Origin: Promethearchaeota archaeon
Lineage (GTDB): Archaea; Asgardarchaeota; Lokiarchaeia; Sigyniarchaeales; SOKP01
Assembly: GCA_048938895.1 (NCBI GenBank)
Contig: JBHLLU010000003.1
Location: 1 to 64,000, forward strand
Length of the DNA stretch: 64,000 nt
Reading direction: 5' to 3'
The notes under the pieces were generated by a model. That model was not told the origin of the DNA, did not search any database, and saw only the letters and a list, made by a program, of their open reading frames with translations. The position numbers were made by a program, and so were the translations under genes. Shown piece after piece: positions 43,439 through 52,933 of the stretch; positions within the stretch are counted from its first letter, which is position 1, and each line of letters opens with the position of its first letter.

Positions 43439-44863
43439 TTAAAGATATGCTAATGCAATGTTATCTAACTGCTTTTGGAGTGATGAATCAATAGGTTTTA
43501 GAGAAGGTTTATTAAGTAATCTAATTGCTTCTTCTCTTGCTCTCTTTCTGGATGACTTTGATCCGTTTTTCTTCCATGTTTCCCGAGTCATTCTATCTAT
43601 AATTTGACTAGGAAGAAATAATTCTTTTCTAAAATATTTCAAAGTTAAAGGATGCGATAACAATTCTTCTTTATCTTCATAATCTTTCAAAATTTCTGAA
43701 GCAAATGGTTTCCCATAATCTTCAATACCGCGAATCAATCTTTTAACCATACCTGCAATTTCATTGTCGGTGATAAGTTTCTCAATACTTTGAGTAGATT
43801 CAAAATCAAGCATTCCGGGACCAGAAATCATATTAATTCCAGCAAGACCCGCAAGCAGTGCCCCCATTCCTGCCTCAAAACCCGCTTGTCCATCAGGAAT
43901 TTTGGAATCGCTTAAACTCATATAGGCATGAGTAGGCAAGTTCAAAAACTTACCCATTTCAACATCTCCAAGATTAATCATCATGGTTTCAATCGCGCCC
44001 ATCGGTGTAGTACCATGTTTCATATCGAATACAGCAGGGGAACCACCCCAAATTAATGGAGCACCTTTATTAGTTGATTGAACAATCACAACTCCTGCAA
44101 GGCACTCGGCACAATGTTGGGTAATTGACCCTATTAAAGTAATAGGAGCACTGGCTCCTGATAAAGGCATTGAGACAAATTCCGAAGGAATCATGCTTTT
44201 AGCAGCATCTATCAATGATTGGGTTGTTAGATCAGACCATTTTAATGGAGGACTAGGACAAGCATCAAATATTGCTAACGGTTTCCGAGCTAAATCATCT
44301 TCAGAATTTCTACATACTAATAAAATTTCTTTCATAATTGAAAAGCTTTCTTTTCTAAATGTTCCCGTTACTACAGGTTTAAAACAATTCGATAATGCTA
44401 AATATAAACGATGCCAATCCTGTGCATCATTAGGAACGTCTTGATAGATCAGAGCAGTACTTTGGGCTTCAATATACTTCAATTGCTCAACGATCTTGGA
44501 AAATCTAATGAAGTCATTAGATTGTCCCTCTCTTAGTTGTCCTGTACTTTCATCGAGTATGAAAATAGCAGCTGACCCAGGATCGTAATGAACTTGATCC
44601 TCTGTTAAAGTTATATGTTCTTCCCCTTCTCTATCAAATAGCGTAATCTTATTAGGGGTTGAATTCAAAGCTTTATCAATCAAATCTGATGGGATAAAAT
44701 ACCTTGAACCATCATGGTTCAACCCCATCTTTTCAAACATATCAATTGCTTCTTGATTTTCAATAAATATTCCTTGGGTTTCTAAAATTGTTTTTGCTTC
44801 CTCTAAAATGAGTTTTTTATGTTCAATATCTAAAATACTAATCTTTGGTCTAATTATTGTCAT
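43439..44863 (-). CDS. MttB-superfamily (trimethylamine methyltransferase-like) corrinoid methyltransferase, non-pyrrolysine
   Basis: SPPLKW, GASAPITLIG, AECLAG, DSKIPDGQAGFE, GMLDFE, DNEI; uninterrupted ORF with no in-frame TAG. Confidence 0.9.
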   Translation of the reverse strand: MTIIRPKISILDIEHKKLILEEAKTILETQGIFIENQEAIDMFEKMGLNHDGSRYFIPSDLIDKALNSTPNKITLFDREGEEHITLTEDQVHYDPGSAAIFILDESTGQLREGQSNDFIRFSKIVEQLKYIEAQSTALIYQDVPNDAQDWHRLYLALSNCFKPVVTGTFRKESFSIMKEILLVCRNSEDDLARKPLAIFDACPSPPLKWSDLTTQSLIDAAKSMIPSEFVSMPLSGASAPITLIGSITQHCAECLAGVVIVQSTNKGAPLIWGGSPAVFDMKHGTTPMGAIETMMINLGDVEMGKFLNLPTHAYMSLSDSKIPDGQAGFEAGMGALLAGLAGINMISGPGMLDFESTQSIEKLITDNEIAGMVKRLIRGIEDYGKPFASEILKDYEDKEELLSHPLTLKYFRKELFLPSQIIDRMTRETWKKNGSKSSRKRAREEAIRLLNKPSLKPIDSSLQKQLDNIALAYL

Positions 44864-49271: not shown

Positions 49272-49691
49272 CTACAAAACATTGCCGATATTTCTAAATA
49301 TTAAATAATTAGCTCCGATTATTGGGCCTAAAATTAATAACGTTAATATAAATGAACGTGTAAGACCAGGTTTATGAATTACGTTTATAAGATTTAAGAC
49401 CAATAAAGTTGAAAAAATAACTGCCATTGCAATAAATGCTGGATTAGGGCCACCATAATAATCACATATACCATTTTTCGTACAATCCAGCTCTGTTAAA
49501 AGCATATCCAGAAGCATAGGACTACTGACAAATAAAGTTATTCCATATTGTATAAGATAACTCCCAGCAACCCATTTAATATTAGTTTTAGATTGAGCTT
49601 TAGTAATTGCCAAACCAATCCTCAGTATAAGAATACCACCTATAATTAAAACTCCTGCGATTATAAATGGTACATATTGCTGAATTTCCAT
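49272..49691 (-). CDS. Hypothetical membrane protein
   Basis: 139 aa with about 4 hydrophobic segments. Confidence 0.65.
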   Translation of the reverse strand: MEIQQYVPFIIAGVLIIGGILILRIGLAITKAQSKTNIKWVAGSYLIQYGITLFVSSPMLLDMLLTELDCTKNGICDYYGGPNPAFIAMAVIFSTLLVLNLINVIHKPGLTRSFILTLLILGPIIGANYLIFRNIGNVL

Positions 49692-49702
49692 CGTTTTTAT
49701 GA

Positions 49703-49726
49703 ATGAATTCTATTTGTAGAATTCAT
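49703..49726. promoter_or_regulatory. Perfect 10-bp inverted repeat in the divergent intergenic region upstream of hdrA
   Basis: ATGAATTCTA-TTTG-TAGAATTCAT. Confidence 0.35.
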
Positions 49727-49887
49727 ATTTATTTTTTAAACAATTTTTAATTAATCATATTATAAAAGATATTAGTTTTAAATTTATTTGGATTTACCTT
49801 TATTTAATTAGAATAAAAATTTATATTCATAATATTATAGAAAATTGAATTGGAGGAAGTAATAAAGATAGAAAGGTATGATATGCA

Positions 49888-51870
49888 ATGGTAGAAACTA
49901 AAGACGAAACTGTTCAAATTGACGATAACATTCCAAGGATCGCTGTTTTTATTTGCCAATGAGGTTTAAACATAGCGGAAGTAATTGCTACTAAGAATTT
50001 AGCGGAATTCGCGAAGACACTTCCAAATGTAGTTGAGGCAATAGATTATATAAGCTTGTGAACCGAATCTGGTGCGGAATTTATCAAGGAGAAAATGATT
50101 GAAACGAATGCAAATAGACTAGTAGTTGGTTCTTGTACTCCTAAAACTCATGAACCTGTATTTAAAAGCGTATTAGAAGCGATGAACATCGACTCTTCAT
50201 TCTTAGAATTTGCTAATATTCGCGAGCATTCTTCCTTTGTCCATAAACAAGATAGAGAGGGTGCTCGGAAAGTCGCTGAAGATGCCTTAAGATCAGCTGT
50301 GGCAAGAGCCTCTGTATTAGAAAAAATTATGATTAAAGAGGTTGATATTACGAAAAAAGCGCTTATAATTGGAGGTGGAGTAGCGGGATTATCGGCAGGA
50401 ATAGATTTAGCTGAAGAAGGATTTGAAGTACATTTAGTAGAAACTCAACCTACAATAGGGGGTAAAATGGCAAAACTCGATCGTACTTTTCCTACAGATG
50501 ATTGTAGCATATGAATTCTGGGACCTGTCATGCTACAAGCAGCACGAACGCCTGGGTTAAACATATATACTTACAGTGAAGTGGAAGATGTACAAGGATT
50601 CGTCGGGAACTTTACTGTAACAATTCGAAAAAAAGCCCGGTACGTGAATAACGATTGTAATGGTTGTGGCGCTTGTTGGGAAGTCTGTCCTGCGTATGGT
50701 TATAATGAATTTAACGAAGGTTTAGATTCAAGGAAAGCAATATATAGTTCATTTGCACAAGCTGTTCCTTCCTTAGCCCAAATCGACATGGATAGATGTA
50801 TTAAATGTGAGTTATGTAAAGCTGCTTGTGAAGTAGATGCAATTGATTTTGATCAGAAAGATGAAATGGTTGAATTAAAGGTTGGTTCAATCGTAGTTGC
50901 TACAGGATGGGACGAATTTGAACCTCCAACAGGATATTTAGGTTATAATAAATATCCTAATGTAATTACACAACTAAAATTAGAACGAATACTTGCTCCC
51001 AATGGACCCACTCTTGGACATCTAGCAAGGCCATCAGACGGAAAAGTACCAAAAAGAATACTATTTATTCAATGTGTAGGTTCGAGAGATTTAAATATGA
51101 ATACCTATTGTAGTTCTGGAGTTTGCTGTATGATTTCGATTAAAAATAGTAAATTAATTAAGCAGCATTCTCCTGAAACGGATATTACTGTTGCCTATAT
51201 GGATATGCGAGCCGCAGGTAAAGATTATGAAGAATATTTCACACTTTCACGAAAAGAAGGAATAAAATACATACGTACAAATGTCAGCAGAATAAAGGAA
51301 GATCCTGAAACTCATAACCTTAAAATCGTAATGCAAAACACATTAAGCTCAAGCGAATTGAAAGAATTAGAATTTGACATGGTAGTCCTCTCAGCAGCAA
51401 TGGTTCCAGCCAAGGGTGTAGAAAGTATTCAGAGAATTTTAAAACTTGAAACAAGTCAAGATGGATTTTTCAAAGAATTTCACGCACGACTTAACCCCAT
51501 TGATACGAAAATACCGGGTATAACTTTAGCGGGAGTTAGTCAAGGGCCAAAATCGATAGTCGAATCAATCGCTCAAGGAAGAGCTGCAGCATCTTCTGTT
51601 GCTAGGCTAATGAGTAAAGATAAATACCGAATATTATTAATTCGAGCCGCTGTGGAAGATAAAGAAAAATGTGCCAAATGTGGATTGTGTGAACTTAATT
51701 GTCCTTATAACGCTATTACTGTAAACGACGACGGTGCTGAAGTAAATGAAATTCTATGTAGGGGTTGTGGGAGTTGTTTAGCTAATTGCCCTTCAGAAGC
51801 AATTACATTACGCTATTATAGGGAACCTCAATATGAAAAACAAATTGACGCTATTTTGGAAGAAATATAG
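49888..51870 (+). CDS. hdrA: Heterodisulfide reductase subunit A, selenoprotein with three Sec (U25, U58, U209), 660 aa
   Basis: One continuous frame from ATG 49888. TGA at 49960 (IAVFICQ-U-GLNIA), 50059 (YISL-U-TESG) and 50512 (FPTDDCSI-U-ILGP) each fall on a conserved HdrA Cys. Also GGGVAG FAD motif, ferredoxin motifs and QCVGSRD. Confidence 0.93.
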
Positions 51871-51884
51871 AGAGGTGTAAAACC

Positions 51885-52346
51885 ATGGCAAGCAAATCTG
51901 AAAATGATATTAAAATTTTAGCTTTCCTTTGCTGGAAATGAGGTTATGGTGCAGGTGATATGGCAGGAACTATACGTGCACAGTATCCAGCCACACTTAG
52001 ACCGGTAAGAATAAATTGTACAGGACGAGTTACCCCTTCACTTATGATGCGAGCAATAGGGAAAGGCGCAGATGGAGTGGTTATAGGTGCTTGATATAGA
52101 GGAGAATGTGATTACGAAACGGGGAATTTAATTGCTGAAAGAAATGTTGGATATGTAAAAGAAATTTTAAAAACCACTGGAATTTCACCAGAACGAGTTC
52201 AAATGTTTCACTGTAGTGCTGCGGAGGGACAGAGATTCCAAGAAGAAGCAACAAGAATCACAAAATTAATAGAAAATTTAGGCAATAATCCCATTAAGGA
52301 TTCATTAAGATCTAGTGATCCAGAAATCAAGAAAAAGAAAAAATAA
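51885..52346 (+). CDS. mvhD: Hydrogenase iron-sulfur subunit MvhD/VhuD, selenoprotein with two Sec (U19, U70), 153 aa; missing from the ORF track
   Basis: After RBS GAGGTG: MASKSENDIKILAFLCWK-U-GYGAGDMAGTIRAQYP...INCTGRV...GADGVVIGA-U-YRGECDYETGN...SAAEG. TGA at 51939 and 52092; stop TAA. Confidence 0.93.
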
Positions 52347-52411
52347 ACCGATTGAATGACTCTTATGAGAAAATCTTAGTCATAAGAAGACAAACTATAA
52401 TGTAATGGTTT
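52345..52411 (+). promoter_or_regulatory. Candidate eukaryote-like SECIS element in the 3' UTR of hdrA-mvhD
   Basis: ATGA (52356-59) C, helix TCTTATGA/TCATAAGA (52361-68/52380-87), apical loop GAAAATCTTAG with an A run, 3' AGAC giving tandem G.A pairs; lower helix AAACC-G-ATTG/TAAT-GGTTT. Confidence 0.8.
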
Positions 52412-52489
52412 CGGAAAATGAAATTTTTCAAAGTAATTAAAAAAAAAAAAAGTAATTTTTTATTAGATTAATTTAGAAAGTTTGATTCC

Positions 52490-52933
52490 TTATTCTCCTA
52501 AAAATTTTTCAAAAACGAAAGCCACCACGCATAATACTCCTGCAAGTAGAACTCCAATTGGAGCGAAACCTACGGTTAACCCCTCAGAATCAAAAACAAA
52601 CATCAATATTGGAAAAATAATTAATGCAATTCCGGTTAAAATGTAGACTAACCAATCCCATTTAAATTCCATGCCTTTCATATTGTGAAGTCCATAGAAT
52701 AACAATAATGCCGCTGCAAAAGCAGCAAATCCGAAAGTCCAAAGAGTGGCTGCATTACCACCAATCCACATATCAGTACCACCACCACTAGCATAAGTAA
52801 TAATAGCGCCCCACCAGTACTGAACGGTTACAGGACCTGTCTTATCACTGGCTACAGGAGTTAAGAGTGCGATAATCAATAAAACCGCGGCAATTAAAAT
52901 ATACAACCAAGTATCCTTTTTAAAATCAACCAT
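52490..52933 (-). CDS. Hypothetical membrane protein
   Basis: 147 aa with about 4 TM segments; T-run downstream on the minus strand (about 52439-52451). Confidence 0.7.
   Translation of the reverse strand: MVDFKKDTWLYILIAAVLLIIALLTPVASDKTGPVTVQYWWGAIITYASGGGTDMWIGGNAATLWTFGFAAFAAALLLFYGLHNMKGMEFKWDWLVYILTGIALIIFPILMFVFDSEGLTVGFAPIGVLLAGVLCVVAFVFEKFLGE

Follow-up and report, generated by a model that had tools for sequence, protein, structure and literature searches.

Tandems of hdrA and vhuD encoding selenoproteins have been described in Lokiarchaeota, and the model in which one SECIS element is shared by multiple UGA codons of a polycistronic mRNA is already in print (Mariotti et al., 2016, PMC4989117; Huang et al., 2024, PMC11227280), the latter paper having extended it across Asgard archaea. 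According to the accessible portions of these papers, the two genes lie on the same strand in the order hdrA-vhuD and are separated by a very short spacer. HdrA contains multiple selenocysteine (Sec) residues, one of which is always at the canonical position around residue 200. VhuD contains two, and a single SECIS (AUGA, a 9-bp stem, an 11-nt loop, and GA) follows VhuD, near or overlapping the end of the coding sequence. The stop codon of HdrA is never UGA.

Outside Lokiarchaeota, Methanococcales and Methanopyrus have the same protein families, with the same synteny, the canonical Sec of HdrA, and the two Sec positions of VhuD (residues X in the solved chain 9sfi_K). Their SECIS is likewise located in the 3' UTR and acts at a distance, as stated in the available text of PMC9622424. 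By contrast, their HdrA has one Sec (PMC4989117, accessible text) rather than three, and the SECIS is of the GAA_A kink-turn-like type. The longest UGA-SECIS distance given as tested in an archaeon in the same available text of PMC9622424 is 679 nt, compared to 2396 nt in the locus described below, and Peiter and Rother (2025, PMC11881835, accessible text) report that a lokiarchaeal SECIS did not function in Methanococcus maripaludis. In eukaryotes, too, there are mRNAs with several UGAs, for instance that of SELENOP, which are recoded by distal 3' SECIS elements whose core is AUGA/GA and whose apical loop is rich in A; however, the SELENOP mRNA is monocistronic and carries two SECIS elements (PMC4989117, accessible text), while here one element would serve two cistrons split by a real stop codon.

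The locus considered here comes from a Loki-type (Asgard) archaeon and consists of adjacent hdrA and mvhD/vhuD genes with five in-frame UGA codons in total; it lies in a 64-kb stretch of DNA, which was analysed as a whole and is referred to as the window. Nothing essential sets it apart from the published Lokiarchaeota tandems, as far as their accessible descriptions go. It shares with them the gene order, the strand, the very short spacer, the multiple Sec residues of HdrA with the canonical one among them, the two Sec residues of the second protein, the hdrA stop other than UGA (UAG), and the architecture of the single SECIS, which here is near the end of the coding sequence. The differences are minor: the apical loop starts with GAAAA rather than AAAAA, the stem begins with a C.A mismatch, and the genome also has a lone Sec-type hdrA with its own SECIS. 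In addition, a paralogous hdrA-mvhD pair in the same genome has seven UGAs, whereas the accessible text of PMC4989117 speaks of up to six. A preliminary description of this DNA had offered one distal SECIS for two cistrons as an inference of its own. The idea is supported by our analysis, but it had been published almost verbatim by Mariotti et al. (PMC4989117, accessible text).

When TGA is translated as U, the hdrA homologue occupies 49888..51870 on the plus strand, the strand of all features given below unless stated otherwise, and encodes 660 amino acids, with the stop codon UAG at 51868-51870. Its UGA codons are at 49960-49962 (U25), 50059-50061 (U58), and 50512-50514 (U209). The mvhD/vhuD homologue (51885..52346, 153 amino acids, stop codon UAA) has UGA codons at 51939-51941 (U19) and 52092-52094 (U70). 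The two genes are separated by a spacer of 14 nt, AGAGGTGTAAAACC, which contains the Shine-Dalgarno-like sequence GAGGUG (51872..51877) 7 nt 5' of the mvhD AUG. Spacers of the AGAGGT or GGAGGT type were seen repeatedly in operons of the same genus, and of 79 related loci, 78 have a spacer of about 4-15 nt, while in the last one it measures 41 nt. Translation with table 11 leaves only the fragments 50095..50514 and 50530..51870 of hdrA and only 51960..52094 and 52203..52346 of mvhD, meaning that standard gene calling would break hdrA into pieces and miss mvhD. Thus, the layout agrees with the preliminary description, which had claimed a hidden hdrA with three and mvhD with two in-frame TGAs, a 14-bp gap with a ribosome-binding site, and the splitting of hdrA and omission of mvhD by standard annotation.

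The neighbouring gene (52490-52933) is on the opposite strand, and since the flanking genes are so oriented, the unit can contain these two genes only. Upstream, when the 130 nt 5' of hdrA were aligned between the window and 17 operons of the same genus, a conserved AT-rich block emerged at 49790..49811, about 75-95 nt 5' of the hdrA start, with the consensus ATTTAAATTTATTTAATTA (conservation of at least 80%), which may be a TATA-like archaeal promoter. The same alignment contains a second conserved motif, TTGGAGGAA, at 49850-49858 of the window. At the other end, a run of five U residues at 52424..52428, 10 nt past the SECIS, is a candidate archaeal oligo-U terminator, and T-runs are also found in same-genus operons shortly 3' of the UCGG strand of the SECIS.

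The HdrA sequence matches the solved chain 5odc_A over query residues 16-657 and chain residues 4-650 (phmmer, E 3e-200), and four more HdrA chain sequences with E at most 4e-162. Its Pfam content is that of an FAD/NAD Rossmann domain plus 4Fe-4S ferredoxin domains, with NAD_binding_8 and Pyr_redox_2 at 157-255, Fer4_8/Fer4_17 at 255-316, and Fer4/Fer4_7 at 589-641. The scores against the NCBIfam equivalogs for CoB-CoM heterodisulfide reductase HdrA/HdrA2 (768.5, 600.7, and 549.1 bits) are below the curated cut-offs of 1100, 1400, and 1300, respectively, and therefore we call the protein an HdrA homologue rather than a proven subunit of CoB-CoM heterodisulfide reductase. MvhD covers the entire Pfam profile FlpD, PF02662 (positions 1-123 of 123; 140.3 bits, gathering score 22.3). 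It scores 140.6 bits with the NCBIfam model VhuD, NF045873, under the cut-off of 215, and hence is not the methanococcal VhuD equivalog.

Together, the two proteins span the fused HdrA2 (NCBIfam NF040770) end to end, as HdrA covers positions 1-643 and MvhD positions 644-774 of the 777-position model. Unlike in the fused enzyme, there are two cistrons here, and Sec replaces five Cys. With scores of 768.5 bits (HdrA) and 123.1 bits (MvhD) against the cut-off of 1100, this makes the pair a relative of HdrA2 and not an HdrA2 equivalog. Judging by sequence, the hdrA product is a homologue of the flavin/Fe-S electron-bifurcating subunit, and the mvhD product is its putative small [Fe-S] partner. All five TGAs fall, as had been claimed, at Cys positions: U25, U58, and U209 of HdrA have Cys opposite them in 5odc_A (chain residues 13, 46, and 197, respectively, counted from the printed alignment), and U19 and U70 of MvhD are both opposite Cys in 9sw2_D and both opposite the non-standard residue X in 9sfi_K (E 3.4e-33).

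Two nucleotides after the mvhD stop codon starts a lokiSECIS-type element of 67 nt (52348..52414), which was delineated by a pattern scan, RNAfold, and a covariance model (R1) built from orthologous SECIS elements. RNAfold gives a lower helix formed by CCGA (52348-52351) and UCGG (52411-52414) and an auxiliary hairpin at 52393-52410. Between them, the pattern scan places AUGA at 52356-52359 and GA at 52389-52390. The upper stem comprises nine positions (52360-52368/52380-52388), the first pair being the C.A mismatch, and the apical loop of 11 nt (52369-52379), GAAAAUCUUAG, has A at four of its first five positions and ends with AG; an A-rich start and an AG end of the loop are also found in the orthologous elements. 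All lokiSECIS features named in section 11 of PMC4989117, in its accessible text, are present: AUGA, the 9-position stem, the 11-nt loop with its A-rich start and AG end, and GA. That section allows AA in place of GA and describes the last loop nucleotide as G, in most cases with A before it. The SECIS-like hairpin noted after mvhD in the preliminary description is thus real, while its end is at 52414 and not at 52411. The Rfam eukaryotic SECIS model did not match the element at E<=10. We know of no SBP2 homologue in archaea.

The minimum free energy structure of the element has the same three helices (-12.8 kcal/mol, z -1.9), and all of them are part of a conserved three-helix element. In an orthologue alignment anchored at CCGA, with the structure given by hand, compensatory changes were observed in eight of nine upper-stem pairs among 21 orthologues. 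Among 77 distinct sequences, all nine pairs have such changes, and the covariation score was reached by none of 500 shuffles. For the lower helix, compensatory changes affect four of four pairs among nine paralogous SECIS elements of the same genome; the variants are CAAA/UUUG, CCCC/GGGG, and CCCA/UGGG in paralogues, and UCGA/UCGA in other families.

We tentatively suggest, while considering it rather unlikely, that the working lokiSECIS is the 67-nt three-helix junction and so goes beyond the published 9-bp/11-nt hairpin with the AUGA/GA core. The 4-bp lower helix would then close a loop holding the kink-turn hairpin and, 3' of GA, a second small hairpin. Neither the lower helix nor the auxiliary hairpin was encountered in library searches or in word searches of the accessible lokiSECIS texts, PMC4989117 among them. 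Should the archaeal SECIS-binding factor recognise this extended fold, the failure of the Loki SECIS in M. maripaludis could be explained, and the fold could be the feature by which a single element reaches UGAs at a distance of 2.4 kb and across a stop codon.

The preliminary description had also stated that the only SECIS-like hairpin found lies after mvhD, and by the three kinds of search described below, all for known shapes, no other was found. When the 64-kb window was scanned with R1 with filters off, the element was recovered at 52348-52416 with 68.5 bits (E 8e-17); the next best match in the rest of the window had 14.3 bits, and inside the operon the score was at most 8.2 bits (E 8.3). 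The 80 related loci agree, as a single strong R1 match (53.8-90.3 bits) is situated directly after mvhD in every one of them, with one further match of 14.7 bits in the whole set. No SECIS family of Rfam was found in the entire window at gathering scores or in 49600-52600 at E<=10; the weak matches to TCL6_1, GlsR10, and IS009 in the latter region, at the same threshold, were judged to be due to chance. The euryarchaeal GAA_A pattern had no matches in the operon (shuffle mean 0.7), and in orthologues its matches are scattered, non-conserved, and mostly within the lokiSECIS region itself. A plain stem-loop pattern is non-specific on the genome scale (138 matches compared to 81, 109, and 127 in three shuffles), and we therefore relied on the covariance model; with an A-rich loop required, the genome has 17 matches compared to 5, 3, and 7. 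The SECIS is 264-2396 nt downstream of the five UGAs.

The UGA codons are conserved in relatives, so chance in-frame TGAs are excluded. Orthologues of the two-gene unit are present in every same-genus genome searched, and hdrA is upstream of mvhD on the same strand in 79 of 80 related loci, the 80th being cut by the contig end. Both mvhD TGA positions are kept in all 79 related loci. In hdrA, TGA is retained at codons 25 and 209 in 20/20 same-genus operons each, and at codon 58 in 15/20, the other five having TGT (Cys). The sequence was also compared with contigs from four other DNA runs, which span the stretch with all 30 bins covered per run; among the 40 differences listed, of 40 + 153 rows, none is in a TGA codon. 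Of 18 sequencing runs listed as containing the stretch, none is on record as RNA.

The genome encodes the machinery for Sec synthesis and insertion. The tRNA-Sec scores 61.1 bits (gathering score 47), and its gene is 183 nt from that of SepSecS (499.7 bits); on the same contig, there is a gene for EFSec/SelB, with 243.3 bits just above the cut-off of 242.25. Two Sec-containing SelD genes (190 and 169.3 bits) have one TGA each. The best match to PSTK is a PSTK-like gene with 151.4 bits (E 5.5e-44; model positions 1-241 of 249) against the curated cut-off of 290.5. The preliminary description had regarded absence of the Sec machinery, TGAs that do not align to Cys or are not conserved in relatives, or a separate SECIS or transcript for hdrA as grounds for abandoning its reading. 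On the first two counts the opposite was found, and on the third the searches for known shapes yielded no second SECIS. At the same time, TGA terminates 233 of 1956 stop-to-stop ORFs of at least 300 codons (12%), and so it is still a normal stop codon in this genome. As regards pyrrolysine decoding, an Rfam PYLIS_3 match at 43816-43913 sits in an MTTB-family ORF without in-frame TAG and was rejected, and the genome has no PylS above the cut-off (best 25.5 bits).

Taken together, we consider it likely that this is a two-gene Lokiarchaeota (Promethearchaeota) selenoprotein unit in which one 3' lokiSECIS recodes all five UGAs. In such a unit, hdrA and mvhD would most likely be transcribed as one bicistronic mRNA ending just past the single lokiSECIS. 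Ribosomes on hdrA would encounter its three UGAs (codons 25, 58, and 209) before terminating at UAG, and those starting at the Shine-Dalgarno site of mvhD would encounter the two UGAs of that gene (codons 19 and 70) before terminating at UAA. In each of the five cases, EFSec with its Sec-tRNA(Sec) would be recruited to the ribosome by the SECIS, and Sec would be inserted where relatives carry Cys. Direction of Sec insertion is the predicted function of the element; co-transcription of the two genes, actual insertion of Sec, and an effect of the SECIS beyond the stop codon of hdrA are inferred.

It could be instead that hdrA has a recoding signal of its own, such as a bacterial-like local element or a eukaryote-like Sec redefinition element, which is invisible to the models, and that the 3' SECIS serves mvhD only. 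Searches for known shapes do leave room for other shapes, and synonymous diversity in hdrA is low at codons 193-210, just 5' of U209 (0.26 compared to the mean of 0.43, uncorrected for codon degeneracy). Still, synonymous change is not strongly suppressed elsewhere in hdrA; among windows of 15 codons, the lowest values are in the first 18 codons, 193-210, 113-127, and the last 20 codons, and the synonymous-site scan, made without normalisation for codon degeneracy, did not yield a strong internal element. Moreover, Mariotti et al. (PMC4989117, section 17, accessible text) applied RNAz to HdrA genes with 200-nt flanks and found no significant structure besides lokiSECIS. The stop codon of hdrA, being TAG in 49, TAA in 30, and TGA in none of 79 related loci, behaves as expected if a downstream SECIS would recode a UGA stop. 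Finally, a lone Sec-type hdrA in the same genome (contig C102), with no mvhD following, has its own lokiSECIS 2 nt past its stop, which means that the UGAs of hdrA go together with a 3' SECIS. Given these observations, a separate signal in hdrA seems improbable.

The lone gene, by retaining its SECIS in cis, also argues against separate hdrA and mvhD mRNAs, arising by transcription or processing, with the SECIS acting on hdrA in trans or with SECIS-independent read-through. The spacer, which is short here and in nearly all related loci, could not accommodate an intergenic promoter, and in HdrA2-type enzymes the two proteins are a single fused polypeptide. The synonymous dip at the last 20 codons of hdrA might equally well conceal an internal promoter or the ribosome-binding region of mvhD, but none of our measurements speaks for separate mRNAs, and we would give them only a slim chance. 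It is harder yet to believe that the TGAs are real stops caused by gene decay or assembly errors, or that TGA has been reassigned genome-wide to a standard amino acid: all that speaks for this is the bare presence of in-frame TGA, whereas the TGAs occur at Cys-aligned columns only and are kept across species while the rest of the protein is 76-95% identical. Also against this are the use of TGA as a stop in long ORFs, the four DNA runs, with none of the listed differences in a TGA codon, and the complete Sec pathway, in which the PSTK-like gene is under its curated cut-off.

If recoding of both genes by the one lokiSECIS is true, a single 3' element would act on five UGAs of two cistrons across 2.4 kb, and this would be the only cross-cistron case of Sec recoding and the one with the longest range. 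The locus also belongs to the transition that has been proposed between the SECIS systems of archaea and eukaryotes. The idea of a shared SECIS has been in print since 2016, and the locus is one more example, clean, well-conserved, and isolated, of a two-gene unit. When a Loki-type culture or translation system becomes available, the locus could provide a construct for tests. For annotation, it means that standard gene calling splits hdrA and misses mvhD in these genomes.

The genome contains further variants of these genes. None of ten copies of Cys-type mvhD has a pattern or R1 match alongside (for R1, 150 of about 10188 first-look candidates were scored). The paralogous pair on contig C115 has a SECIS with a bulged stem, which was seen by eye and is not matched by R1. 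The lone Sec-type hdrA with a SECIS, the Cys-type pairs without one, and the pair with seven UGAs are ready natural controls for experiments. A small two-helix ORF with one UGA (P0004) had no homologue in 40 relatives. As a side observation, small membrane ORFs with a UGA and a SECIS after them occur at 10 loci and constitute a candidate selenoprotein family, which was not encountered in print by library searches or by word searches in the accessible lokiSECIS literature.

As the preliminary description had proposed, the plus strand of the window carries two frames with five in-frame TGA codons: hdrA at 49888-51870 (660 aa with TGA read as selenocysteine, U; TGA at 49960, 50059, and 50512; stop codon TAG) and mvhD at 51885-52346 (153 aa, TGA at 51939 and 52092, stop codon TAA). 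The proposed 14-nt spacer with a ribosome-binding site was also confirmed, the motif being GAGGTG, and so was the expectation that standard annotation would split hdrA and lose mvhD, as the standard table yields only fragments of this region. The hdrA product has a Rossmann FAD/NAD domain and ferredoxin domains (Pfam), matches positions 1-643 of the NCBIfam HdrA2 model with 768.5 bits, and aligns to the solved HdrA chain 5odc_A (E 3e-200) with cysteines opposite all three U residues (U25, U58, and U209). The mvhD product matches Pfam FlpD (140.3 bits); its U19 and U70 are opposite two non-standard residues (X) in 9sfi_K and opposite cysteines in 9sw2_D. Moreover, its match to the fused HdrA2 model spans positions 644-774, and hence a single polypeptide in other archaea is the counterpart of both cistrons. 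As neither product reaches the cut-offs that NCBIfam has curated for the methanogen equivalogs, we name them, on the basis of similarity, only homologues of HdrA and MvhD/VhuD.

Both neighbors of the pair are small membrane-protein genes on the minus strand without Pfam matches, one divergent (49272-49691) and one convergent (52490-52933); therefore, the unit has room for hdrA and mvhD only. Two blocks upstream of hdrA are conserved, same-genus operons being alike in both: an AT-rich block at 49790-49811, ∼75-95 nt 5' of the gene, and TTGGAGGAA, containing a GGAGG block, at 49850-49858, ∼30 nt before the hdrA AUG. The latter is too distant from the AUG for a normal ribosome-binding site.

The source genome (4.65 Mb, 174 contigs, 31% G+C) encodes components of the selenocysteine (Sec) decoding machinery. 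We found tRNA-Sec (61.1 bits); SepSecS (499.7 bits), whose gene lies at a distance of 183 nt from that of the tRNA; an EFSec/SelB homologue on the same contig (243.3 bits, just above its cut-off); two SelD genes with a single in-frame TGA apiece; and a PSTK-like gene (E 5.5e-44, under its curated cut-off). At the same time, TGA terminates 233 of 1956 long ORFs, and thus the codon has not been reassigned genome-wide. In the NCBI taxonomy, the name Promethearchaeota/Promethearchaeia shares one taxid with Candidatus Lokiarchaeota.

A 67-nt element of the lokiSECIS type (the SECIS described in Lokiarchaeota) occupies 52348-52414 on the plus strand, beginning 2 nt after the mvhD stop. From its 5' end, it comprises CCGA, four nucleotides without pairing partners, AUGA, a stem of nine positions that starts with a C.A mismatch, and the 11-nt loop GAAAAUCUUAG; these are followed by the second stem strand, GA, a small second hairpin, and UCGG, the partner of the initial CCGA in a lower helix. 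The element satisfies every lokiSECIS feature given in the accessible text of Mariotti et al. (PMC4989117). We aligned 21 elements from orthologous operons of same-genus genomes and built from them a covariance model, R1. In this alignment, compensatory changes occur at eight of the nine upper-stem pairs, the paired fraction of cells is 89%, and the covariation score was equalled in none of 500 shuffles. Scanned with R1 over all 64 kb with filters off, the element scored 68.5 bits and the next best match 14.3 bits, so that no second SECIS was found in the window, in line with the initial observation that the only SECIS-like hairpin seen was after mvhD. Inside the operon, the sole R1 match (filters off) had 8.2 bits (E 8.3); neither the Rfam scan of the operon nor a scan of it for the euryarchaeal GAA_A pattern yielded a further SECIS. 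When the same model was applied to 80 related public loci, each taken with flanks of 2.5 kb, it gave one strong match per locus, directly 3' of mvhD (53.8-90.3 bits), and a single additional match of 14.7 bits, while all nine upper-stem pairs covary among 77 distinct sequences from these loci.

The UGA codons are retained in relatives. In the window and 19 same-genus operons, all 20 hdrA genes have TGA at codons 25 and 209; at codon 58, 15 have TGA and five have TGT. The public loci, which overlap with the same-genus genomes and hence are not an independent set, have hdrA upstream of mvhD on the same strand in 79 of 80 cases, the 80th being cut by a contig end. Both mvhD TGAs are present in 79/79 loci, and the hdrA stop is TAG in 49 loci and TAA in 30, with no case of TGA. 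In 78 loci the spacer measures ∼4-15 nt; one locus has a spacer of 41 nt. Among the 68 loci reaching the hdrA N-terminus, U occurs at 25 and 209 in 38, at 25, 58, and 209 in 28, at 25, 58, 83, and 209 in one, and at 209 alone in one. The stretch is also covered by contigs of four other DNA runs, and among the differences listed, none falls in the five TGA codons. We also observed that synonymous diversity, uncorrected for codon degeneracy (20 orthologues, mean 0.43, standard deviation of 15-codon windows 0.06), dips to 0.26 at hdrA codons 193-210 (∼50464-50517), just before UGA209.

Further copies of these genes in the source genome provide a comparison. By tblastn, it has five hdrA genes of the Sec type and ten mvhD copies of the Cys type. 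Downstream of four of the five Sec-type hdrA lie a Sec-type mvhD and, after it, a SECIS, three of these SECIS being found by pattern and R1 and the one on contig C115, with a bulged stem, by eye only. The fifth, on contig C102 (50800-52883 including the SECIS), lacks a following mvhD and has TGA in the alignment columns for residues 25 and 209; it carries its own lokiSECIS 2 nt after the TAA stop (51.7 bits) and thereby contrasts naturally with the tandem pairs. No SECIS match adjoins any Cys-type hdrA-mvhD pair of this genome. This distribution indicates that hdrA UGAs are, as far as the genomic sequence tells, always accompanied by a 3' SECIS in cis, placed after mvhD where mvhD follows, and, of the evidence at the sequence level, it supports a shared signal best. 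In the paralogous pair at C43:1245-3698, hdrA has five TGAs, opposite window residues 25, 58, 83, 209, and 310 (every column Cys), mvhD has two, and one lokiSECIS follows mvhD. Seven UGAs per SECIS is one above the "up to six" stated by Mariotti et al., 2016 (PMC4989117).

The most likely course comprises one mRNA, independent translation, and a shared SECIS. Transcription would start at the AT-rich block ∼75-95 nt 5' of hdrA and end at the U-run just after the SECIS; hdrA and mvhD would be translated independently from this mRNA, and the single 3' SECIS, together with EFSec and a putative binding factor, would recode all five UGAs, which lie 2396, 2297, 1844, 417, and 264 nt away from it. The longest UGA-SECIS distance given as tested in an archaeon in the accessible text of PMC9622424 is 679 nt, and one lokiSECIS is reported to have failed in M. 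maripaludis (PMC11881835).

The idea that one SECIS would serve five UGAs in two cistrons, put forward initially, is supported by every test at the sequence level, and it had already been published. For Lokiarchaeota, Mariotti et al., 2016 (PMC4989117) describe VhuD with two Sec, an invariable HdrA-VhuD tandem whose genes overlap or are separated by very few nucleotides, a lokiSECIS that occurs once and after VhuD only, an inferred polycistronic mRNA, and the rule that UGA is never the HdrA stop. Across Asgard genomes, the same clustering of hdrA with frhD and shared eSECIS-like structures are reported by Huang et al., 2024 (PMC11227280); the accessible portion of a 2026 review (PMC13188914) has nothing further on the arrangement. 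Since these two studies describe it, the window operon is a correct rediscovery in one more genome; it adds a clean example to those known, and the internal controls are useful.

The SECIS of hdrA-mvhD is a three-helix element. In the window and paralogous SECIS, a 4-bp lower helix encloses the AUGA/GA hairpin and the second small hairpin 3' of GA. This helix, close to invariant among orthologues, is CCGA/UCGG in the window and CAAA/UUUG, CCCC/GGGG, or CCCA/UGGG in paralogues, with compensatory changes at all four pairs among nine paralogous SECIS of the genome in an alignment fitted to R1. It is shared by SECIS at C33:123237-123307, C102:8665-8731, C144:55436-55502, C51:52316-52381, C43:3632-3698, C162:1269-1335, and C102:52814-52883, and the layout recurs in other families of the order (e.g., UCGA/UCGA). 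Published Asgard SECIS models (PMC4989117, PMC11227280), as far as their accessible text goes, comprise the core, upper stem, and apical loop only, and this text does not mention the lower helix or the second hairpin.

An Rfam PYLIS_3 match at window positions 43816-43913 on the minus strand (48.8 bits, gathering score 38) lies within an MTTB-family ORF (43439-44863; Pfam MTTB 251 bits). As in-frame TAG codons are absent from this ORF and the genome has no PylS match above the cut-off (best 25.5 bits), we rejected pyrrolysine decoding and ascribe the match to mttB coding similarity.

Elsewhere in the genome, strong SECIS matches follow small one-UGA ORFs of no Pfam family. A 55-aa ORF at C102:8486-8653 (plus strand), followed by a SECIS at C102:8665-8731 (61.8 bits), has a K/R-rich N-terminus, one membrane helix, and a Gly-rich linker before U-G-C. 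Of 24 same-genus genomes, 13 have a weak homologue, and nine of these 13 matches contain one TGA. Across its loci (related loci L153-L161), R1 matches 10/10 (45.5-70.7 bits), and U after the linker is retained in 9/10. This may be a family of small membrane-anchored selenoproteins beyond the seven Asgard families given in the accessible text of Huang et al., 2024 (PMC11227280). Single-UGA ORFs also precede the SECIS at C144:55436 (motif SSUS, no homologue among 40 relatives) and C51:52316 (motif CKIU), and a weaker R1 match at C99:40907-40970 on the plus strand (32.3 bits) follows frames with several TGAs, including a UU pair.
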